This document shows positions 7,340 to 62,700 of a DNA stretch of 64,000 nt, in pieces. Position numbers and translations under genes: made by a program. A model generated the notes under the pieces. That model was given only the letters and a program-made list of their open reading frames with translations. It searched no databases and was not told the DNA's origin. How positions within the stretch are numbered: the first letter of the stretch is position 1; every line of letters starts with the position of its first letter. The stretch is from Gammaproteobacteria bacterium (GTDB taxonomy: Bacteria > Pseudomonadota > Gammaproteobacteria > JABCZS01): NCBI GenBank assembly GCA_044445605.1, contig JBIOEA010000002.1, positions 40,060-104,059 of the forward strand, in the 5' to 3' direction.

Positions 7340-7458
7340 CCCCTAGAGGGCGAAACATGTTTCGCCGCTACATACAAATCCCCCGCCTCGAAATACTCGG
7401 CCGCCCCCTTTTCAAAGGGGGCAAGAGGCTCCCCCGCCTCGGAATACTCGGCCGCCAT
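7340..7458. repeat. Composite REP-like intergenic repeat, copy 1 (between nuoG and nuoF). Modules: palindrome GGGCGAAACATGTTTCGCC, CCCCGCCTCGGAATACTCGGCCGCC (present twice) and CCCCTTTT..AAAGGGGG
   Basis: Direct comparison with copies at 38535-38632 and 53555-53630 (reverse orientation). Confidence 0.8.
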
Positions 7459-38534: not shown

Positions 38535-38632
38535 TTGTAGGGGCGAAACATTTTTCGCCCTTACAAAAATCCCCCGCCTCGGAATACTCGGCTGCCCCCT
38601 TTTCCCAAAGAGGGCCTAAGACATAGAAGGGC
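38535..38632. repeat. Composite REP-like intergenic repeat, copy 2 (between rplY and pth)
   Basis: TGTAGGGGCGAAACATTTTTCGCCCTTACA + AATCCCCCGCCTCGGAATACTCGGCTGCC + CCCCTTTTTCCCAAAGAGGG + CTAAGACATAGAAG, matching modules of copies 1 and 3. Confidence 0.8.
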
Positions 38633-40375: not shown

Positions 40376-40425
40376 CCTGTAATGAGATTATTCTTCACCT
40401 TCGCTATATAACCGCTCGGGGTCCC

Positions 40426-40552
40426 GGCATCTACGCGGGGAGGTCTTTATTTCACCATCGAACAAGCATCGGCTTGTCGTTCGCCCCAACAGCAGGGGCT
40501 CACTCGAGCAGATTTGTCGCGGTTCAATAAAGACCTCCCCGCGCAGATGCCA
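40426..40552. repeat. Structured element bounded by 26-bp inverted repeats (GGCATCTACGCGGGGAGGTCTTTATT / AATAAAGACCTCCCCGCGCAGATGCC, 1 mismatch) with nested internal hairpins. MITE-like or structured-RNA candidate
   Basis: Seen directly; ~75-nt interior itself contains the GAACAAGC/GCTTGTCGTTC and GCCCC/GGGGC hairpins. Confidence 0.6.
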
Positions 40553-40620
40553 CCCCTCACTCTTATGCGTGCGGCTTGAATAATGCTTATTTAATTTGTC
40601 ATAAAATATCCTAGCCTGAC

Positions 40621-40852
40621 TTTTAAATTCAAGTATTGTTCAAGCAAACGACAATGAAGCGAGTGTCGGTGCCAATGCGGGGTTGTTCTTATCGTGCCGG
40701 GACATATCTTGTCTGGCGAGCCTCCGATGCTGGAGCTTGCCCATGAGTTCCGCGTGAGCCCAACCACAATGCCAGCTACCTAATGGCATCGATAAGAATG
40801 ACACCGTGTTGGCAAACCAGACACGAGCGTTAAATAGAGTGCAGCGCAGAAC
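40621..40852. repeat. Left copy of a degenerate inverted repeat flanking the hydrolase island; split by a ~150-bp insertion relative to the right copy
   Basis: Reverse complement of 40801-40852 (GATTGTTCTGCGCTGCACTCTATTTAACGCTCG) and of 40621-40650 (GTTTGCTTGAACAATACTTGAATTTAAAAG) match contiguous sequence at 45911-45975. Confidence 0.5.
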
Positions 40853-40926
40853 AATCGCAAACCGCAGGAAAATTCAGATTGCCACGCTGCGTTGGAAAGC
40901 ACTGTCAAGCCTTACCTGGCCAAAAT

Positions 40927-42255
40927 TCATTTCTTCTCTTTCTTCTCACAAGGCTTAACTGCCGTTGTTCTATCAAAATGAATAATACTGTCAAACTGAT
41001 AAGGAAGTTGCGTATAGAAATAGTGACTATCCCTCTCAGTGCCGGGTGAATAAATCACACCAATGGCACGTTGCAGTCTTGGAATTTTCAATAAATGTTC
41101 GAGATTTTTATTTCCACGAAGTTCCAGTAAAAAGTTGTCATAAGGAATGTCATGAAATAATTTTTCATAACTCCCTGCTAAACCAGGTTTAATGTTTCGC
41201 ACCATACCAGGCATGTCCCAAGAAGTGGCGGCAGTCACGGTACCATCATAAGTGGAAAAACCAATCGAATAAACCTCTTCATCATGTCTTTCTCGAACAA
41301 GTTGTCCAATATTGAATTCGCCGCGGAACCCCATTTCTGTGGCTCTTGCATCGCCCACATGAGAATTGTGTGCCCAAATAATTATTTTGGCGGGTTTATT
41401 TAAACGTTTTTCAAGATGGTCTAAAATAGACTCCACGGTTTCAGCCATGTGTTTATCGCGATTATTCCACGATAAAACATGCCCATCAAACATAGAACGA
41501 TAATAATTTTCCGCATTTTTTACTATCTTTGCGTTTTGCAAGGCAAAGAAATATTCTTCTTCTGCTAACAGCCCATCTTTTTTTATATACTTTAAAGCAT
41601 CCTTTTGCAACTCCATGATTTCCATCACTGCTTCTTTAATACAGGGTTTCTTCAACCCTTCCGACGTCAGGAAACCGTATTCTTGAGCATCATCCAACAT
41701 ATGATCAAAACAGCCATACCGTTTTATTGCGCGCTCTGCTGCAGCTGGATCTGCTTTCACCAGATAATCAATCACAGCTTTCATCGAAGCATAAAAACTA
41801 TATAAATCTAATCCATAAAATCCAACTTTATTTTTCTGATCACATTTATCGTTGAAACAACGCATCCATTTCAACAAGTCTGGCATTGTTTTATTGCACC
41901 ACATCCATGTTGGAAATCGTTTAAACGCAGATAATGCTTCCTCAGCATTATTAACATCGCCAATACCTTGCACATACCGATGGAGTGAATAGACATCCGG
42001 CCAATCGCCCTCAATCGCAATAGCCATAAACCCCTTTTCTTCAATAAGTCTTTTCGATATATCAATGCGAGCTTGATAAAACTCTTCCGTCCCATGTGTC
42101 GCTTCACCCATCAATACAATGCGTGAGTCTCCAATTTTTTCTATCAAAGAGGAATATTTGTCTGCATTTTCTAATAGTGGTTCAGATTCTCCAGCAATAA
42201 CGCTGACAAGATGGTCATAGGCTGATTTCAACTCTTTATTCATTTTAAAATGCAC
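40927..42255 (-). CDS. Erythromycin-esterase-family (Ere/Bcr136-like) protein
   Basis: 442 aa; N-terminal …VLMGEATHGTEEF… motif of the erythromycin esterase family (PF05139-like); no signal peptide. Confidence 0.65.
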   Translation of the reverse strand: MHFKMNKELKSAYDHLVSVIAGESEPLLENADKYSSLIEKIGDSRIVLMGEATHGTEEFYQARIDISKRLIEEKGFMAIAIEGDWPDVYSLHRYVQGIGDVNNAEEALSAFKRFPTWMWCNKTMPDLLKWMRCFNDKCDQKNKVGFYGLDLYSFYASMKAVIDYLVKADPAAAERAIKRYGCFDHMLDDAQEYGFLTSEGLKKPCIKEAVMEIMELQKDALKYIKKDGLLAEEEYFFALQNAKIVKNAENYYRSMFDGHVLSWNNRDKHMAETVESILDHLEKRLNKPAKIIIWAHNSHVGDARATEMGFRGEFNIGQLVRERHDEEVYSIGFSTYDGTVTAATSWDMPGMVRNIKPGLAGSYEKLFHDIPYDNFLLELRGNKNLEHLLKIPRLQRAIGVIYSPGTERDSHYFYTQLPYQFDSIIHFDRTTAVKPCEKKEKK

Positions 42256-42335
42256 CCTGGTAGATTAACTGATTTCCTATGCTAACATTATAGAGTTAAT
42301 TTTGAAAAACAGTTAATCGACAAGGGGATTTAGAT

Positions 42336-43439
42336 ATGAGAGATTATACGCTGACTGCCATTGGCACGATAATCCTTTCATTGATGGGTATCTCCAGTTC
42401 TTTGGCTTGTACTGATTTTCGGCTCACGGCTCAAGACGGAACCGTTCTGATCACACGCACGATGGAACATTCTGATTTGCATTCTAACCTTCGAAGCTCC
42501 ACTCGCGGCAGAATTTTTCAAACGACGGCGCCAGACGGCAAACCTGGATTAACGTGGAAAGCAACATATGGTTATGTATTTATGGATGGTTTGAATGTAG
42601 ACGCATCCCTCGATGGAATGAATGAAGCAGGCCTCTCATTTGAGGCACTCTACCTCCCTGACTATGCGCAATATCAAGAAGTTCCTTCAGGTCATGACGA
42701 TGAAGCACTTCCATACTTATACATAGGTGATTGGATCCTCAGCAACTTTAAAACGGTTGATGAGGTAAAAGAAGCACTCAATCATATATTCCTTTATGGG
42801 AATAAAATACCCGGCATGGGCGATATGATTTACCCCCTGCATTATGCAGTATATGATGCTTCTGGGAAAGGTCTCGTGATTGAATATGTTAATGGCAAGT
42901 TAAATCTTCATGACAACGCTATTGGCGTACTGACCAATTCTCCGCCTTACGATTGGCATCTTACCAATCTGAAAAATTATATTCACCTTCGCCCCGTTAA
43001 TCCTACACCGGTGCAAGCAAGCGGTATTACCTTTGCTGCAGCAGGCGTTGGTTATGGCATGGTCGGTTTACCTGGAGATATTAGCCCTCCTTCGCGTTTT
43101 GTTAAAATGGCGGTGCTGAAAGATGTAGCATTACCCGCAAAAAATTCTGATGAGGTACTCACGCTTGCCCAACATATCATTAATAACGTGGATATCCCGT
43201 TAGGGCTGGTTCGCATCCCCGAAAACAATACATTTACCACGGAGACAACAGAATGGACTGTCTTCAAAGATTTAACGCACAAAGTGCTTTATTACCGTAG
43301 CTATGAGGATTTCACAATACATGCAGTGAATCTTTCTCAGGTTGATTTTTCAGAAAAAGCACAGCGCTTGAAAATGCCCATGGCGAGTAAAGCACATATT
43401 GAAGACGTGACAAATCAATTTTTGAAATCTATTCCGTGA
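42336..43439 (+). CDS. Choloylglycine-hydrolase-family Ntn hydrolase (penicillin V acylase / bile-salt hydrolase-like), secreted
   Basis: Signal peptide ending …SSLA|CTDFRL, placing Cys at the mature N-terminus as in the CBAH family; 367 aa. Confidence 0.7.
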   Translation: MRDYTLTAIGTIILSLMGISSSLACTDFRLTAQDGTVLITRTMEHSDLHSNLRSSTRGRIFQTTAPDGKPGLTWKATYGYVFMDGLNVDASLDGMNEAGLSFEALYLPDYAQYQEVPSGHDDEALPYLYIGDWILSNFKTVDEVKEALNHIFLYGNKIPGMGDMIYPLHYAVYDASGKGLVIEYVNGKLNLHDNAIGVLTNSPPYDWHLTNLKNYIHLRPVNPTPVQASGITFAAAGVGYGMVGLPGDISPPSRFVKMAVLKDVALPAKNSDEVLTLAQHIINNVDIPLGLVRIPENNTFTTETTEWTVFKDLTHKVLYYRSYEDFTIHAVNLSQVDFSEKAQRLKMPMASKAHIEDVTNQFLKSIP

Positions 43440-43462
43440 CTCGGGGGATCTGAAAAAATGAT

Positions 43463-44665
43463 TTATGAGCCACAAGTTGACTTTGCTTTCTTTCCTGAAA
43501 AACGATCGGAAATCCATGCTAAAAAGTCTTTTTGAGCATACGCAGAAAGTCCAATGTGATCAACACCTTTATAAAGGTGATATTCAATAGTGGCGCCTTG
43601 TTTACAAACTTTTTCCACATAAGCCGTTGTTGTCTCGGGAAATATGGCCAAATCCGCATCACCCTGATACACAGCAAGTGGAACTTTTGCGGGAATATTG
43701 CCGAGTGAATTTTCGGCAATACGCTTGTCCCACTTATCTTGATTTTTTCTATCCACGCGAATAGCAGGCCCGACATACTCTTCAAAATAACCCAGCGAAT
43801 CACTCATATGGTGACTGCATTGTGATTTGATTGATTCAGTCAAAAACTTAATGCCATTATCTGTCAACATATCATTCAATTTTAACTCGGGGAACACGAG
43901 CGTCATGGCATACCATGCCATGACCATTTCAGTGGCAGTAACAGGCCGAAGTTTTTTACCTTCCGATGTTATCTTATGCATAATCCTGATTTGCTCATCA
44001 GCATTAACAGGCGCTAAAGACACAGCACCAACAAGATTTGCATGACCGCTTAAGTAATCTGCCAATTGCGCTGCCCAGACAGACGCTTGCCCACCTTGTG
44101 ACCAACCGATAGCAACCACTTCGTTTCCAGCGTGGATTTCTGGCATCTGTTGCACAGCAATCGCTGCATCCATCATATTCCGTGCCTCAGTCGAACCAAT
44201 CAAATATTGATGTATGCCAGGCGAACCTAAGCCGTTGTAGTCTGTTGCCACCACCACATATCCTGCAGCAATCATCTCGGATAAACCTGGAATGCCATAA
44301 TCAAAATCCTCATCGCTATTGGGATGATAGTAAAACACTGCATCACGTGCAGGGTGTTTTGCCAGTGAAGGGGCGCAATGATTTGATATACCAGACGTTC
44401 CGTGCCCCCAGGTGACAATGTGCAACATTTTTTTTGAATCAGACGTTGCTGGCGCAATGACAATACCTGAAACAGGTACCACTTCGTCGTTAATGGTGGT
44501 AGACCAATATGAAATTCTCCACGCTTTGGCATTTGAAACAGAGGTATTGATCTCTTTTGTCGATATGACCTTGCCATGCTGTGGCAAAGAAGCATTATCT
44601 TGCGCCATTGCTGAAATGCAGACGCACGTTAAAAACAGTGAACGAGCAAAAAATGAATGTGTCAT
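43463..44665 (-). CDS. Secretory lipase (LIP family alpha/beta hydrolase) with signal peptide
   Basis: Signal peptide …CISAMA|QD; GWSQGG nucleophile-elbow motif; 400 aa; overall LIP (PF03583-like) architecture. Confidence 0.65.
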   Translation of the reverse strand: MTHSFFARSLFLTCVCISAMAQDNASLPQHGKVISTKEINTSVSNAKAWRISYWSTTINDEVVPVSGIVIAPATSDSKKMLHIVTWGHGTSGISNHCAPSLAKHPARDAVFYYHPNSDEDFDYGIPGLSEMIAAGYVVVATDYNGLGSPGIHQYLIGSTEARNMMDAAIAVQQMPEIHAGNEVVAIGWSQGGQASVWAAQLADYLSGHANLVGAVSLAPVNADEQIRIMHKITSEGKKLRPVTATEMVMAWYAMTLVFPELKLNDMLTDNGIKFLTESIKSQCSHHMSDSLGYFEEYVGPAIRVDRKNQDKWDKRIAENSLGNIPAKVPLAVYQGDADLAIFPETTTAYVEKVCKQGATIEYHLYKGVDHIGLSAYAQKDFLAWISDRFSGKKAKSTCGS

Positions 44666-44746
44666 TTATTTTCTTCCTTAACACAAGGTTTAACCGTTGT
44701 TGCTCTATCGAAATGAATAATACTGTCAAACCAACTCTTTATTCAT
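44666..44746 (-). pseudogene. Remnant of a second ere-like gene: ~65 bp of the 3' end fused to ~15 bp of the 5' end, consistent with an internal ~1.2-kb deletion
   Basis: 44669-44730 matches 40933-40995 (3' end of the ere-like gene) and 44731-44746 matches 42226-42255 (5' end including the start codon). Junction TCAAAC^CAACTC lies in a short direct repeat (TCAAAC/TTCAAC). Confidence 0.7.
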
Positions 44747-44822
44747 TTTAAAATGCACCCTGGTAGATTAACTGATTTCCTATGCTAACATTATAGAGTC
44801 AATTTTGAAAAACAGTTAATCG
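44747..44822. repeat. Near-identical duplicate of the ere/hydrolase intergenic (promoter) region 42256-42331
   Basis: …TGGTAGATTAACTGATTTCCTATGCTAACATTATAGAGT(T/C)AATTTTGAAAAACAGTTAATCG… present at both sites. Confidence 0.85.
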
Positions 44823-44911
44823 CCAACAATGCTGATGAGGCACTCAAGCTCGCTCAACACATCATTAATAACAATGTCCTATATAACGCATCGGGCTTGG
44901 CTATACATTGA
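44823..44911 (+). pseudogene. Internal fragment of a diverged choloylglycine-hydrolase paralog (corresponds to residues ~270-300 of the intact gene), 5' ~800 bp missing
   Basis: Translates to NADEALKLAQHIINNNVLYNASGLAIH* versus intact KNSDEVLTLAQHIINNVDIPLGLV…; joined directly to the duplicated promoter region. Confidence 0.6.
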
Positions 44912-44998
44912 ACCACTTGACAACCCTCATAAATCCGTGTAGCTTAACTAAATTGATCATACAGAATGAACCAGCCGTAAAAACAACAGGTATTACCC

Positions 44999-45886
44999 AT
45001 GGACAAATTACATTATGCTACCGCAGCAAATGAAGATACCGCACAGGTAGTCATCTTTGGTGCCAATTCAAATCGCGCAAGTCATGCGCCAAGCCACCAA
45101 ACAACCACAGGCGTTGATCGCTCTCTTTTTTCAGGCGATTTTGCGCGCGATGCGGAAAATGAAAGCCCTTCTTTGTCTGAAAAAATGGTTCCGGGTGACC
45201 ATGTCTATGATGCAGGCAATCTATCGATGCCAGATAAAAAACTGGCGCAAGTCAAAACGATGTTTAATTATTTCGATAATCTTTTTAATGATAAAAAAAT
45301 CCCCATTTGTTTAGGAGGTGATCATCTCGTCAAATACGCAGGGCTAAGCGCGTTGTTTAAGCATCATCCCGATGCTTATGTCATCTATTTAGATGCGCAC
45401 CCTGATTGCCACATGACAGAGAGGTTATATTATGGCTCAATATTACATCACGTTCTGAATGATAAAAAAGCGAATGCAGATCAAATTGTATTAACAGGCC
45501 TGAGGCAATCTAATGCAAAAGAAAAAATAGGTTATGAATTTTATGCGATGCCGACGATTTTTGGCATTGAATTTTCATTGTATACGCTGAAAGAAATTTT
45601 TGAAAGAATCCAATTGATTATCCCAGCAGGAAAACATGTTTATTTTTCAGTAGACTTAGATGGATTTGATCCCGCTGATACACCCGGGGTGGAACAACCT
45701 TGCCCAGGTGGCCCAAAGGTCAATGATTTTCTAGCGCTCATGCATTTAATGGCATCGAAGTATTATTTTGCAGGCATGGACATCACAGAGTTTTTACCGT
45801 CTATCGACAAACAAAAATTAACCGGGTTGGCTATGATGCGTATTGTGAAAGAATTTGCTGCGCTATCCCTGAACCGAACTGCCTGA
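44999..45886 (+). CDS. Arginase/agmatinase/formiminoglutamase-family ureohydrolase
   Basis: Metal-binding motifs GGDHL, DAHPD, SVDLDGFDP characteristic of the arginase fold; 295 aa. Confidence 0.7.
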   Translation: MDKLHYATAANEDTAQVVIFGANSNRASHAPSHQTTTGVDRSLFSGDFARDAENESPSLSEKMVPGDHVYDAGNLSMPDKKLAQVKTMFNYFDNLFNDKKIPICLGGDHLVKYAGLSALFKHHPDAYVIYLDAHPDCHMTERLYYGSILHHVLNDKKANADQIVLTGLRQSNAKEKIGYEFYAMPTIFGIEFSLYTLKEIFERIQLIIPAGKHVYFSVDLDGFDPADTPGVEQPCPGGPKVNDFLALMHLMASKYYFAGMDITEFLPSIDKQKLTGLAMMRIVKEFAALSLNRTA

Positions 45887-45910
45887 AAATGCAACTTTTT
45901 GGTACGCATT

Positions 45911-45975
45911 GGTGATTGTTCTGCGCTGCACGCTATTTAACGTTCGCGTTTGCTTGAACAATGCTGATTTAAATG
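45911..45975. repeat. Right (compact) copy of the degenerate inverted repeat flanking the hydrolase island
   Basis: GATTGTTCTGCGCTGCACGCTATTTAACGTTCGCGTTTGCTTGAACAATGCTGATTTAAATGAT matches reverse complement of segments in 40621-40852. Confidence 0.5.
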
Positions 45976-46150
45976 ATATAAATTAGCCCGTTGCATCAAA
46001 TAGAATTGAATGATGAATTTGGAAGAAGCATTAAAGAAAGCGATATCAAATTCATTCGCTTCGCTAGCAGGACGCCGACGATAAGCGCCCAAGAACAGTC
46101 GATTCCTTCGGTATGTGAATTCAGGTTATGAAGCGAAGGTGAGAAAAATC

Positions 46151-46216
46151 CCCATGGCGAGTAAAGCACCTATTGAAGACGTGACAAATCAATTTTTGAA
46201 ATCTACCCTTCCCTAG
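46151..46216 (+). pseudogene. 3'-terminal fragment (~20 codons) of a choloylglycine hydrolase gene copy
   Basis: CCCATGGCGAGTAAAGCACCTATTGAAGACGTGACAAATCAATTTTTGAAATCTA… is ~95% identical to 43380-43433, the 3' end of the intact gene. Confidence 0.7.
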
Positions 46217-46566
46217 TGTCCAAATGGATGTCTTTCTATGCCTTCTGCCAACAAAATGCTGGCTAATGCATTGAGGCTTACACCTTCAAGTTTGGCCCGT
46301 CTAGCAAGTGCTGCATGCAGGCTTTTAGGCACACGCATACGCCATTGGCCACTATATTGCTCAGGGCTAGGTAATTCGTCATTAAATTCCTTAGCAGTGA
46401 GCAACCACGATTTCAAGGCATCCTCGGCAGCAGCCAAGGCTTCCTCAATCGTTTCCCCATCTGCCATGCAACCAGGCAAGTCTGGAAATTCTACTAGATA
46501 ACCATCGCCCTCTGACTTACTGAGGTGTCTAATGGTGACTGGGTATTTTAATTCAATCATTGCCAT
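46213..46566 (-). CDS. hicB: HicB-family antitoxin
   Basis: …YPVTIRHLSKSEGDGYLVEFPDLPGCMADGETIEEALAAAEDAL… RNase H-like HicB fold plus C-terminal RHH-like region; overlaps the upstream hicA by 14 bp. Confidence 0.8.
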   Translation of the reverse strand: MAMIELKYPVTIRHLSKSEGDGYLVEFPDLPGCMADGETIEEALAAAEDALKSWLLTAKEFNDELPSPEQYSGQWRMRVPKSLHAALARRAKLEGVSLNALASILLAEGIERHPFGH

Positions 46567-49877: not shown

Positions 49878-51383
49878 ATGAAGTTCCAAAAGATAATCAA
49901 TACGCTACTCGAACTCAATGCAAAAATGAATAGACCAAAATTAGTCATGACTCCTGCTCAAGCTGAAGATATGATCACCACGAAAGCCGAGCTCAAAGCC
50001 CTCGCCAAGGATGAGCATACGAACTCAATAGCGATAAAGGTTTTTTTATATGAACGTTGGGAACGCATCAAAAATCAGTCATCTAATTATCATCGTTGGC
50101 CGTTAAGCCCCATGAATGAGATTTGCATCGAACTGGCAAATGCGATTAACCCTTACGCATTAACGGCACTTATCATGCCAAAAAAGCACCCACGGCAGAC
50201 GCGCAAGGGGCTCACGAAACGCGACCTGTACACGCATGACGAAAAGGGTTTTACACCTTTCTATTATGTCGTTATACAAAATGATATCGATTCGCTGGAA
50301 GACATGGTTCATGTGGCAGGCAAAGACATTTTAAAATATAAATTTGGCCCTGAAGAATTTCATACGCCACTGACAACAGCGGCGCTTCACAGCAATGAAA
50401 CAATGCTTAAAAAAATAATTGAAATGTTAGGGCCGGATGCATTTGCTCCTCTCGGAGAGCAGCCTCTTCATTGGCTTGCTTATCAAGAATATAGCGTGAA
50501 TACATGTAAAATGGCAGACATATTGATTGAGGAGGCCGCGGCTGCAGGAGCTGATTGTTTTTTGAATACTCAAGGCGCTCATCGCAATTTCTGGGGGAAA
50601 ACCCCGTTCGAGATTGCCTTGTATACCAATAACTGGACGTTCTTCGCTGGCTTTTTAATTCGTAGGGGAGCGGATGTCAACATCAATGACGAGCTGCATC
50701 AAGCCTGGAAAAAAAATAGTTGCCTACTCCCCGCTCTTATCGAGCGAAAAGATATTGGCACCTTGGCAAAGAAAAATGACAAAAATTCAATCATGCTTGA
50801 CCATCTCCTCCGTGATACGCTGAATCATTATAGAAATAGTCATTCTTTTTCCGTCTCAGGCATTAGAAACCTGGTTGAAGCCGGCGCCCAGATTAAACCG
50901 AGTGATTGCGATTTAACTTGCGGCCTACTCAAATGGCAGGGAGGCATTAGCCTTGCAGCACTTCTCTCACAAAATGACATATTTGATCAATGCGAATTTA
51001 AAGAACTGTGCGAGATTCTAAGACCAGATGAACACACTACATCACGTTTAATTATTCTGTACGCCCGCGGCCTTGTCAGCAGACTCTCCCTCTTTGATCC
51101 ATCAACACTTCCCACCATGAGCAGCGAACTTCAACTTGAATTAAAAGATGTAGACACGGCCATTGAAACCATCGAAAAAGTGGATAGACTTCGGATTGAA
51201 ATACTCAAGGTCCAAAAAATCAATCGCGAAAAACCGAACTTTTCCTTTTCCATTTTCAGCTTCTCAAGCAAATTAACCGGCGACTATGCCAGGCTTCCAG
51301 AGAATTTGAGGGGGCCGTTGATAGGGTCGTCTCATCCCGACTTCAACATGAACGGCGACAAAAAAATCACCGCAACTCTGTAA
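49878..51383 (+). CDS. Ankyrin-repeat protein (501 aa), effector-like
   Basis: Several ANK repeats (…GFTPFYYVVIQNDIDSLEDMVHVAG…, …TPLTTAALHSNETMLKKIIEMLG…, …KTPFEIALYTNNWTFFAGFLIRRGADVN…); eukaryote-like domain in a bacterial genome. Confidence 0.75.
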   Translation: MKFQKIINTLLELNAKMNRPKLVMTPAQAEDMITTKAELKALAKDEHTNSIAIKVFLYERWERIKNQSSNYHRWPLSPMNEICIELANAINPYALTALIMPKKHPRQTRKGLTKRDLYTHDEKGFTPFYYVVIQNDIDSLEDMVHVAGKDILKYKFGPEEFHTPLTTAALHSNETMLKKIIEMLGPDAFAPLGEQPLHWLAYQEYSVNTCKMADILIEEAAAAGADCFLNTQGAHRNFWGKTPFEIALYTNNWTFFAGFLIRRGADVNINDELHQAWKKNSCLLPALIERKDIGTLAKKNDKNSIMLDHLLRDTLNHYRNSHSFSVSGIRNLVEAGAQIKPSDCDLTCGLLKWQGGISLAALLSQNDIFDQCEFKELCEILRPDEHTTSRLIILYARGLVSRLSLFDPSTLPTMSSELQLELKDVDTAIETIEKVDRLRIEILKVQKINREKPNFSFSIFSFSSKLTGDYARLPENLRGPLIGSSHPDFNMNGDKKITATL

Positions 51384-53543: not shown

Positions 53544-53554
53544 GGATACCAGCC

Positions 53555-53630
53555 TTCTATGTCTTAGGCCCCCTTTGGTAAAAGGGGGCAGCCTGTAGGG
53601 ACGAAACATGTTTCGCCCCTACAATAGAGG
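53555..53630. repeat. Composite REP-like intergenic repeat, copy 3 (reverse orientation; downstream of rho)
   Basis: Reverse complement TGTAGGGGCGAAACATGTTTCGTCCCTACA + GCCCCCTTTTACCAAAGGGGGC + CTAAGACATAGAAG matches modules of copies 1 and 2. Confidence 0.8.
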
Positions 53631-59703: not shown

Positions 59704-59791
59704 GTCGCCCTCTTTGCCTTGCTTTAACGACCCCACCCATGTTAAGCTAACCTCCTTAAATCAAGCATTTTCTGATGAAGGGGTATTGAAT

Positions 59792-62700
59792 ATGGGTATT
59801 AATGCACAACAGCTCAAAACTAACTTTATTACTCTAGATTACAAAAATGAGATCCTGAAATACCCTCAACTCTGGATAGAGCTCTTAGAAATCTCTTCAC
59901 GGAAGGCATATGAGTACATAGACTTATTTAGCGATAATGAATCATTACAGCTTATACAAAATTCACAAACACAAGCAACCCTTCGCGCAACACTCTTCAC
60001 AAAATATCTAAACTATATTGTCGACTTTTCCGACCCATTTGATTCAAGTACAATCATCACCGAAGCACACATGAAAAAAATGGTAGAAAGATGTTTGAAA
60101 GACGAAGTCTGGGATAACGATAGAGTAGAAATCCATTATCTAAACCATCACACCTCGTTTTTTTATGAAGAAACGGGTCAATATATTATGCAAAAATCTA
60201 CCCAAGGTTCTAACCAAGTCGAACTTAATCTCGGCCACACAAACATACATAAACATCTGAAATATAATAGTCAAGAAATTCGCAAAAGCGACACCAAAAC
60301 AGATTTTTTCTCCGCCTATAACATTGAGCATGAAAGAGCCGAAGCTATGGCCAGTAAATGCATAGCAATATTAGATAAATCAAATGAAGGGTTTTTGGAT
60401 GCTGAATTTCAACGATTCATAAATGGTGACATCCGCCGTGCCATGACCCAGTTAGCAAAACTTGGACAATATGATCTCTTGATGGCGATTTTCAAGAAGC
60501 TATCCCCTGCCGTTGCAGTAGATGAACTTACCCGTGGGGGCACTGACAGCGTCTTTGCCATTCTCGTTAATGCACTGCCAGAAACGCGTGTCATTCTTGG
60601 CAACCTTATAAATCATGCCATAGGCATAGAAAATATGACAATGAAGGAATTTAATCATAAGATTCTGCCGGTAACGCTCAATACTATTAAAGAACGTTCC
60701 GAATCGTTATATCAAAAACTAACAGACTCTTCATCCTCAAAACCAACATCCACACAAAAAGATGAAAATGAGTTGGAATTAAATAATATAAAAGTCTATG
60801 AGAATGGCAGCACGTTCTGGGATGGCATGGATTTAGATGAATTCTGTAAAGTGCCTTACCTTATTCCAGAGTTCATCAAGCACGATCTGATCAAAAATCC
60901 CGAAAAACTATGCTCGATTGCAAAAAAGAATAAATATCTAGCATGCAATTATATCAGCGCACTCAGCGACGAGCAGGCAAAAATACTCGCCAACAATGCA
61001 TCCGACAACGTGTTGATTGATCTTTTTAATCACACAGTAAAACATACAGTAATGATTCATCAAAAAGTTAATGACATGTACAAGTTGCTGAAACATGCGA
61101 ACAATTCGGTTTGTGAGGCAGTGTTCGGCGAGCTAACTCATCATGACTGGACAAGAATTTTAAAAAACAAAGCATGTCCACTTGTAAACAAATTAGTAGA
61201 GACGGTAACCAATGATAATGCATCTCGCCTTCTTGGTAAGCTAGACTTTAATTTATTAAATTTATTGTCAGGCGATTCCTTTTTCAGTGGTGAGGAAATA
61301 CATCTTTATCTAAAAGCACCTTCTTTTTATGGTATCAATTACGACAATTTGAACGATAAGTCGTCTATTAACTTTTTTATTCATCATATACTCACGGCAG
61401 CAGAAAGGGATAATAAACTTACCCCTGGCAAGCAAGATGTCGTATGCACCCTCATCACTCAATTGCTTGCAGGCGACGCCTCAATCTTTAACCTATTTGT
61501 TAATAAGGAGGCAAACTCATTAGGACTTATATTTTCTGCTTTCAAATTTCATCAGCTCATGACTAATCAGCTTCCTGAAAGAACATTTCAGGCTTTGCAA
61601 TTAGACACATGGTTAGCGCTGCCCAAAAAAGCTATTGGCAACTCTTATAATACAGCCATTCAATTACTCAATTTTGTTTCAACTGAAAATGCTGCATCGC
61701 TTTTGGGTGGGCTTCAATTTGATTTGCTTAACGCCCTGACGGAACAAGATTTATATGATGAAGCACAAAATCTTTTTGTAAAACTACCCAGTCAAAACAT
61801 TCCACCGAAGCTAATCAAATGGGTTGAAGACAAAATCAAAGCATCCCCTAAAGCAACGATTGAAAGCCTCGGCATTGAAAAAATACTCATGGATGCCATT
61901 AGCGCTTCAAAGGCAGCAAAAATAGATGCTAGGAAGTTTTTAGCTGAAGCTCAGGAAAACCCCGCTGCTGCCTGCAAATTCTTACAGTTACAAAGCGATA
62001 GAATCATTGAAGCACTCGTCGGTAGCATCCATTCCATCCAGGATAAGTATTTTTTCGAACGCATTATCCTTGCTTTTGACGAACACATGCCGATTAAATT
62101 AATGATGAAAATTGATTCAAACATTATTTTTTCGTTTTCACAATTTCACGATTCAGATACTACGACCCCTGCGATAGAAAGTCTCTGCATGAATTATTTA
62201 AAAAATGATCGGTTCGACATGATCTGTGCATTATTGAAACATGCCTCTCAAGTTGATCTATGGCATCTTCATTTTACTGTACTTTCTCAAGCTTCTTTTA
62301 TCAAGAAATCAATCGAAATGAATTGGGAGCGTAACATCATCGATGCGTTGCGTATGCATACTGATAAGGATACAAATCAAATATTGCTTACCTATATTGA
62401 GAATGTTATTGAGCACTTTTCTGCTGATTATCCCTATAGCCCAAAGAGTTTCGAAGTCTTTCTGCAAAGTTTGGATCCAGAATGCGTTCCCTTATTAAAA
62501 CCGATTAACAGTTTTAATGACCTCATGTCAAAGAATAAACTGCTACATGCTAAAGTGCTTTATCAAATGAATCCAACGTATTTTAACGATAATGCTGAGC
62601 GCCCAGCCATCATTAAACTCAAGGCACTGTACCCCGATCTGAATAGCGATGCTAAACCCATTCAACAGTCGACCAGTGAAATGGATATTCTTAGGGCAGA

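Follow-up and report, generated by a model that had tools for sequence, protein, structure and literature searches.

Fragments of a second, divergent ere/CBAH gene pair near an intact copy in a Legionellales-like genome

Gene remnants, which are short pseudogene fragments, occur in the intergenic spacers of Rickettsia, Coxiella, and Mycobacterium leprae. Gene conversion is known to act between dispersed bacterial paralogues, for example between tufA and tufB or among rRNA operons. Here we describe a locus that resembles both kinds of system. It lies in a 64-kb window (the whole stretch of DNA that was analyzed) of a 105-kb contig from a metagenome-assembled ‘Gammaproteobacteria bacterium’ of Legionellales-like character, and it comprises the 333-nt spacer (44666-44998) between an intact lipase gene and an intact arginase-family gene, together with a short stretch farther downstream (46145-46216). 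These segments carry four fragments of a divergently transcribed pair of genes, ere and CBAH, whose intact representatives are located nearby. A first-pass annotation made from the sequence had described the spacer as the fossil of a duplicated cassette undergoing reductive decay.

Like the remnants of Rickettsia, Coxiella, and M. leprae, these fragments are short, non-coding leftovers between intact genes, have arisen by internal deletions, and can be recognized only by means of an intact homologue. They differ from those remnants in three respects. First, the intact homologue is present in the same genome, only 2.5 kb away. Second, the fragments form a mosaic of two ages. Third, a predicted promoter has been kept complete, and it plausibly still serves the neighboring gene. 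As in the conversion of tufA/tufB and of rRNA operons, near-identical patches are embedded in diverged duplicates and identity changes abruptly along the sequence. Unlike in those systems, one of the partners is a dead fragment, and conversion is deduced from only approximately 280 nt.

The intact ere gene (40927-42243, minus strand, 438 aa) is a full-length member of the erythromycin esterase family (Pfam PF05139, E=4.8e-127), which includes EreA, EreB, and the Bacillus cereus proteins Bcr135 and Bcr136. Its product is identical to NCBI entry MFI4955798.1, which is from a metagenome-assembled genome. The intact CBAH gene (42336-43439, plus strand) is a member of the choloylglycine hydrolase, or linear amide C-N hydrolase, family (PF02275, E=3.7e-63), and the protein carries a cysteine after a signal-like N-terminus. 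These two genes serve as the reference copies for the fragments, which derive from close paralogues that we call ere' and CBAH'. Unlike members of the two families, ere' retains 27 of 438 codons and cannot encode an esterase, and CBAH' has lost its middle as well as its first 267 codons, including the start codon. Nothing in this locus demonstrates macrolide resistance.

We favor the hypothesis, with a probability of roughly 65%, that positions 44662-44872 and 46145-46216 are what is left of a second and older ere'/CBAH' pair of divergently transcribed genes, which was patched by gene conversion and was then cut down. The feature is an ordinary gene remnant, a further case of a familiar phenomenon, and it combines a mosaic history with a promoter that is probably still used. 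It has little importance beyond this genome, and we present it as a clean example of a paralogous pair whittled down in an accessory region.

Four collinear fragments of a second pair

The stretch 44600-46300 was compared with the stretch 40700-43500 by using BLASTN, and a repeat search was also conducted. This pairwise alignment, which had been proposed as a check on the first-pass annotation, yielded four significant matches of the spacer region to the intact pair (84-98% identity over 52-95 nt; E-values from 3e-43 to 8e-12), all of which are direct and collinear. A self-comparison of the whole window revealed no further relic copies of ere or CBAH.

The first fragment, A' (44662-44731, minus strand), matches the 3' end of ere including its stop codon (40927-40996) over 70 nt with 84% identity (E=3e-17). 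It encompasses the last 22 codons and the stop of the lost ere' gene, and the frame is still open, reading FDSIIHFDRATTVKPCVKEENK before the stop where the intact gene encodes FDSIIHFDRTTAVKPCEKKEKK (77% identity over 22 aa, E=8e-6 by tblastn). Among the 17 closest ere homologues that were read, the C-terminal motif VKPC is shared only by ere and the relic. The second fragment, B' (44732-44826), matches 42229-42323 over 95 nt with 98% identity (E=3e-43), and it is composed of the first 15 nt of ere, which represent the first five codons of ere' (MNKEL; 44732-44746, minus strand), and of the ere/CBAH intergenic region. Fragments A' and B' confirm that ere-like 3' and 5' ends adjoin each other before the lipase start, as the first-pass annotation had stated. 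The same annotation had reported a copy of the intergenic region that was ~95% identical to 42256-42331. The copy exists (44747-44822), and it carries the promoter and palindrome without the ribosome-binding site and start codon of CBAH', but its correct partner is 42244-42319, a register 12 nt away from the one proposed, and the identity is 98%.

The third fragment, C' (44821-44872, plus strand), matches CBAH nucleotides 801-852 (43136-43187) over 52 nt with 85% identity (E=8e-12). It corresponds to residues 267-284 of intact CBAH and remains in frame without a start codon, reading ANNADEALKLAQHIINN compared to AKNSDEVLTLAQHIINN in the intact protein. A diverged internal fragment lacking the first ~800 bp of a hydrolase gene had been predicted to extend to 44911, and this prediction holds up to 44872; the remaining positions (44873-44911) align with a score of 17, which is at chance level (shuffle mean 16.0, sd 2.4, with 33% of shuffles reaching the same score). 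The fourth fragment, D' (46145-46205, plus strand), matches the 3' end of CBAH (43371-43431) over 61 nt with 97% identity (E=8e-25). It carries the last 20 codons of CBAH', which then ends divergently with STLP and a stop where intact CBAH ends with SIP and a stop. This region extends to 46216, where its stop codon (46214-46216) overlaps the stop codon (46213-46215) of the adjoining antitoxin gene hicB (46213-46566, minus strand; PF15919, E=2.4e-11, and PF05534). Thus, a 3' fragment of the hydrolase gene does abut hicB, whose earlier assignment is likewise upheld by the PF15919 match, but the fragment had been placed at 46151-46216 with ~95% identity rather than at its actual boundaries. A tblastn stretch that would extend D' upstream to 46106 has DNA similarity at chance level, and so this extension is not claimed.

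Both C' and D' match CBAH at the protein level (E=0.004 and E=4e-6, respectively), and C' is also picked up by CBAH orthologues from other species. At the DNA level, the only long match for C' and D' is the intact copy in this genome, and orthologues match them much less well. The four fragments are arranged in the same order and orientation as their counterparts in the intact divergent pair. The interval missing from ere' corresponds to 40997-42228, or 1,232 bp, in agreement with the deletion of ~1.23 kb estimated previously. As a result of the deletion, codons 6-416 are gone and codons 1-5 join A' out of frame to create the mini-ORF MNKELV followed by a stop, such that ere' remains recognizable by its significant similarity to an intact family member (A' plus the first 15 nt in B') and cannot yield a protein of this family. 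Similarly, CBAH' is recognizable from C' and D' even though its ribosome-binding site, start codon, and first 800 bp are missing and its middle is replaced.

The two outer ends of the homology are also informative. On the left, it stops exactly at the ere' stop codon (TCA, 44662-44664), which overlaps the lipase start codon (CAT, 44663-44665) as an ATGA sequence, and the overlap described in the first-pass annotation is evident on reading the sequence. On the right, the homology stops 8 nt short of the position of the intact CBAH stop codon. These characteristics support the conclusion that a second ere/CBAH pair was formerly located here in the same divergent arrangement and is now reduced to fragments.

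The deletion junction and two identity classes

The junction created by the ere' deletion is located between 44731 and 44732, where the relic reads ...ACTGTCAAAC/CAACTCTTTATTCAT, the left parent reads ...GTCAAAC/TGATAAGG, and the right parent reads ...GCTGATTT/CAACTC. Compared with the intact copy there are zero ambiguous bases at the junction, and hence no microhomology, although the true parent is ere' rather than intact ere, and ere' was evidently almost identical to ere at this place. The first-pass annotation had ascribed this deletion to short-repeat slippage, with TCAAAC and TTCAAC as the direct repeats. When direct repeats slip or recombine, a single repeat copy is left in the product. 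The two motifs are indeed present at the breakpoints (40991-40996 and 42227-42232), but they agree at only 4 of 6 positions in an ungapped comparison, and 41% of 5,000 random breakpoint pairs with the same spacing have a hexamer match of at least 5/6 within 8 nt of both breakpoints. Because the relic sequence GTCAAAC/CAACTC retains both motifs (TCAAAC and CAAC), because microhomology is absent, and because the similarity of the motifs is at chance level, slippage is unsupported as the mechanism of this deletion.

A second proposal of the first-pass annotation was the ongoing decay of a duplicated cassette, and the distribution of mismatches does not support a single cassette in uniform decay. 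Tracts with 97-99% identity alternate with tracts with 78-85% identity, and A' plus C' carry 19 mismatches in 122 nt versus 4 in 156 nt for B' plus D' (Fisher p=1e-4). Within A', all 11 mismatches fall within 44668-44710, whereas the remaining 21 nt up to the junction (44711-44731) are identical to ere, an outcome with a probability of 0.005-0.03 at 78-85% identity. The near-identical tract therefore runs from 44711 to 44822, spans the deletion junction, and carries a single mismatch in 112 nt; the probability of observing at most one mismatch over this length at the background rate is 1e-7. Since the junction lies inside this young tract, conversion probably preceded the loss of the 1,232 bp, and the deletion would hence be recent. 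The differences between the intact genes and fragments A' and C' are a mixture of synonymous and conservative changes, and so the low-identity parts are compatible with divergence while still coding, in stretches that are too short to serve as proof. For the high-identity class, recency is a simpler explanation than selection on a promoter. Promoter selection is not a general cause of the high identity, because D', which is apparently functionless, is also 97% identical.

These data bear on whether the fragments might simply descend from an ere-CBAH cassette that had recently undergone segmental duplication, followed by neutral decay and by loss of most of ere through slippage between TCAAAC and TTCAAC. 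The fragments are collinear, B' and D' are 97-98% identical to their counterparts as would be true for a recent copy, and both motifs do sit at the breakpoints. However, a recent segmental (tandem) duplication is expected to exhibit uniform divergence, whereas the left part of A' and all of C' have only 78-85% identity compared to 97% for the neutral fragment D', and the junction offers neither microhomology nor motif similarity beyond what random breakpoint pairs provide. Homology that runs into flanking DNA to an arbitrary breakpoint, as is typical of recent duplications, is also not seen. Instead, the left end of the homology at the ere' stop codon and lipase ATG is the pattern expected of an old paralogue that was coupled to the lipase gene. 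Furthermore, the middle of CBAH' was not merely lost, as plain reductive decay would predict, since 1,272 nt (44873-46144, plus strand) that carry an intact arginase-family gene now stand in place of 183 nt. Due to these discrepancies, we regard a recent duplication as decidedly unlikely.

The possibility that the second pair is a xenologue, acquired from a related lineage and recombined with the resident pair to produce the near-identical patches before it decayed, must also be weighed. This locus is in an accessory stretch of lower G+C content that lies between core genes and includes toxin-antitoxin genes, the identity pattern is a mosaic, and the neighboring genes differ greatly in the distance to their nearest relatives (arginase-family gene 82%, ere 69%, lipase 61%, and CBAH 60% identity). 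No donor-like sequence was found, however, with nothing closer than 69% to ere among 5.8 billion proteins, and the C-terminal motif of ere' is shared only with the resident ere gene. The data do not separate a xenologue from an old internal duplication, and we hold the former to be an unlikely source of the second pair.

The ere family is widespread in Legionellales at 62-69% identity, and CBAH orthologues with 50-60% identity are present in genomes of Coxiellaceae and Legionellales. A scan of genome contigs for CBAH returned 74 loci, with a best identity of 60%, and none has an ere, lipase, or arginase-family gene nearby; the ere-CBAH ‘module’ is peculiar to this genome (CBAH next to ere in 0 of 74 related loci). 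The gene arrangement of the window is found in no relative, and the nearest ere, lipase, and arginase-family genes reside in unrelated contexts. An intact second copy was not found in any relative in the collections searched, an exact look-up of the CBAH and ere sequences from the window returned no contig, and a metagenome scan with the lipase protein found nothing. In one Coxiellaceae genome (L005), a distance of 2 kb, in which a photolyase gene lies, separates CBAH from the HI0933 gene. The non-coding stretches 40376-40926 and 45887-46144 were also compared with ORFs of related loci, this photolyase among them, and no other gene relics were found in either.

An assembly artefact, whether by repeat-induced chimerism or by strain mixing, is a concern with any metagenome-assembled genome, and repeats of 61-95 nt with 97-98% identity are of the kind that can confuse short-read assemblers. 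Yet the junctions between A' and B' and between B' and C' are unique sequences that must exist in reads, and because the B segment is traversed twice, the observed order would appear to be the only linear path that uses each segment once. The flanking genes are intact and agree with the NCBI gene calls. We consider an artefact to be highly improbable.

The predicted promoter region and the proposed history

In the intact pair, the intergenic region (42244-42335) carries an imperfect palindrome composed of GATTAACTG, 38 nt, and CAGTTAATC. Its DNA fold is stronger than those of shuffled sequences (z=-4.0; none of 200 shuffles folded as strongly), and the pattern is found only at the two copies in the window. 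A scan of the metagenome collection for the palindrome and promoter-operator pattern did not find it elsewhere, and the duplicated intergenic region has no Rfam match at the gathering threshold. The sole Rfam candidate with E<1 was mir-29, which was rejected as a chance match (21 bits compared to a gathering score of 46.7).

The intergenic region also includes a sigma-70-like site on the minus strand, TTAACT-18-TATAAT (-35 at 42316-42311 and -10 at 42292-42287), which has 10/12 matches and is one of four sites tied for the best score in 6.6 kb. This site is unchanged in the relic, where it lies on the minus strand facing the lipase gene (-35 at 44819-44814 and -10 at 44795-44790), with suitable hexamers, spacing, and orientation, 125 nt before the lipase ATG. 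The near-identical tract stops 3 nt past the -35 hexamer. The promoter scan revealed no other minus-strand promoter-like sites in the spacer, and there is no minus-strand terminator-like site between the relic promoter and the lipase ATG. In addition, a Shine-Dalgarno-like sequence for the lipase gene (AAGGAAG) is located inside A', 7 nt before the ATG. The lipase gene itself (43463-44665, minus strand) encodes an intact 400-aa protein of the secretory lipase family (PF03583, E=2.8e-19), identical to NCBI entry MFI4955800.1 and with the same start codon, and tblastn identified no second copy or fragment of either the lipase or the arginase-family gene in the window.

From these sequence features, we infer that the surviving relic promoter probably drives the lipase gene today. 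Interpreted most simply in functional terms, exactly those pieces would have survived that the lipase gene needs, namely a promoter, a leader, and a ribosome-binding site, and deletions sparing these pieces would have been tolerated. If so, the part of a dead gene that persists can be the one on which a neighboring gene depends. Transcription of the plus strand from the relic promoter region may also extend into the arginase-family gene.

Three steps could have produced this arrangement. In the first, two paralogous pairs with ~80-85% DNA identity would have existed in one genome, with ere' translationally coupled to the downstream lipase gene via the ATGA overlap. In the second, patches of the second pair would have been made near-identical to the first, most likely by gene conversion, with one patch covering most of ere' plus the intergenic region and a separate patch covering the 3' end of CBAH'. 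In the third, the 1,232-bp deletion without microhomology would have removed ere' codons 6-416, a deletion of ~812 bp would have taken away the first 800 bp of CBAH' together with its start codon and ribosome-binding site, and the arginase-family segment of 1.27 kb would have replaced 183 bp of the CBAH' middle. The outcome would be a relic comprising the lipase promoter (44819-44790), a leader of ~120 nt with a leftover ORF of 6 codons, and the ere' 3' end with its ribosome-binding site.

Several observations weigh against this history of an older pair that was patched and then cut down. The whole case is built on a relic of ~280 nt from one metagenome-assembled contig, and the frames that remain open in A' and C' are not long enough to establish coding constraint in the past. 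The identity of B' could instead reflect selection on a shared operator, although the equally conserved and apparently functionless D' argues otherwise. The closest relatives of the lipase (61%) stand alone without an upstream ere gene, and so there is no outside support for an old ere'-lipase operon. The promoter match alone proves nothing, since the scan returned 18 sites compared to 16.5 expected in shuffled sequence. Finally, this history does not account for the arginase segment or for the inverted copy of the ere flank that it carries (described below).

A more speculative possibility is that the near-identical 112-nt palindromic tract is a working bidirectional control module, kept the same at both sites by conversion or by selection, through which the lipase and arginase-family genes would share an unknown regulator with ere and CBAH. 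This scenario seems doubtful to us, but if it were true, gene decay would have led to the rewiring of a small regulon that comprises four enzymes, secreted or hydrolytic.

For annotation purposes, we recommend that positions 44666-44998 and 46145-46216 be labeled as remnants of ere and CBAH genes and that the former ere' promoter be taken as the probable promoter of the lipase gene. Moreover, the direct repeats of 95 nt and 61 nt (97-98% identity) make the locus prone to further deletions of 2.5-2.8 kb. Recombination between 42229-42323 and 44732-44826 would remove 2,503 bp, including CBAH and the lipase gene. Recombination between 43371-43431 and 46145-46205 would remove 2,774 bp, including the lipase gene, the relic, and the arginase-family gene, and it would rebuild a full-length CBAH gene with an altered C-terminus.

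The arginase segment, genomic setting, and other repeats

The second junction of the relic joins ...CAGTTAATCG to CCAACAATGCTGATGAGG and thereby removes the beginning of CBAH', and the arginase segment starts directly after C'. The intact arginase-family gene (44999-45886, plus strand; PF00491, E=1e-39) encodes a protein that is identical to an NCBI entry. Its closest relatives have 82% amino acid identity and reside on two metagenomic contigs beside VapBC modules, with DNA homology limited to the coding region (44978-45864). In both relatives (L078, 1616-3336; L079, 3886-5561) the gene is syntenic with a divergent VapBC (MazE/PIN) pair, and in the window its neighbor is HicAB. The arginase-family gene appears to travel in variable regions that are rich in toxin-antitoxin modules.

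Within the arginase segment, 23 nt past the arginase stop codon, is an inverted copy of the sequence just downstream of intact ere (45887-45968, minus strand). By BLASTN, 45914-45955 matches 40856-40815 in inverted orientation with 88% identity (E=3e-10), and the gapped alignment scores 65.6, compared to a shuffle mean of 20.6 and a maximum of 35. The left partner (40624-40861, plus strand) is formed by 40624-40651 and 40824-40861 and is interrupted by ~170 nt. As a result, an inverted repeat of ~66 nt lies 3' of both ere and the arginase-family gene and brackets a 5-kb enzyme cluster. The interruption (40652-40823) has 25-nt inverted ends of its own (40670-40694 and 40790-40814), and from its sequence it looks like a miniature inverted-repeat element. 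No transposase is encoded between the arms of the inverted repeat, where all ORFs are enzymes with Pfam assignments, and the repeat (40624-40861 / 45887-45968) occurs only twice in 64 kb, which does not match what defines a transposon or IS unit. An integron cassette was also considered for the arginase segment and was rejected: by eye there are no convincing attC core sites and the fold is weak (z=-1.8). There is no integrase among the ORFs examined.

The remnant sits in an accessory stretch that is flanked by two core-gene groups. On one side are lolB, a GHMP-kinase gene that is likely ispE, tRNA-Gln, the ribose-phosphate pyrophosphokinase gene (prs), the ribosomal protein L25 gene, pth, and a gene for an HI0933-like flavoprotein; rho lies on the opposite side. 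The G+C content is ~0.40 (0.37-0.44) in the accessory stretch compared to 0.45-0.55 upstream, and the neighboring genes have their best matches in genomes of Coxiellaceae and Legionellales. Beyond hicB, a small ORF without a Pfam match occupies the position of a hicA toxin gene and is followed by a gene for a P-type cation-transporting ATPase. The ATPase gene is adjoined by an ankyrin-repeat protein gene (49878-51383), which is compatible with an intracellular, Legionellales-like lifestyle of the source organism.

Additional repeats were encountered in the window. A 126-nt palindromic element (40426-40551) directly follows the HI0933-like gene and has 31-nt arms with 90% complementarity and a 64-nt center; it has no Rfam match. 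Intergenic repeats are common to three distant sites (7348-7456, 38535-38630, and 53553-53624), where 38541-38615 matches 7348-7422 with 86% identity and 53553-53593 matches 38590-38630 in inverted orientation with 95% identity, and a 30-nt palindrome is located at 53594-53623. The three sites may belong to a small family of dispersed repeats in the vicinity of pth and rho. Finally, two tandem paralogous ORFs, one at 59714-62872 (1,052 aa) and one at 62868-64000 that runs off the end of the window, share ~77% DNA identity over 1.1 kb and have no Pfam domain. They come directly after two genes, one for an ABC transporter and one for an outer-membrane efflux protein, that are separated from each other by three ORFs, and the tandem paralogues may be substrates of a type I secretion system.

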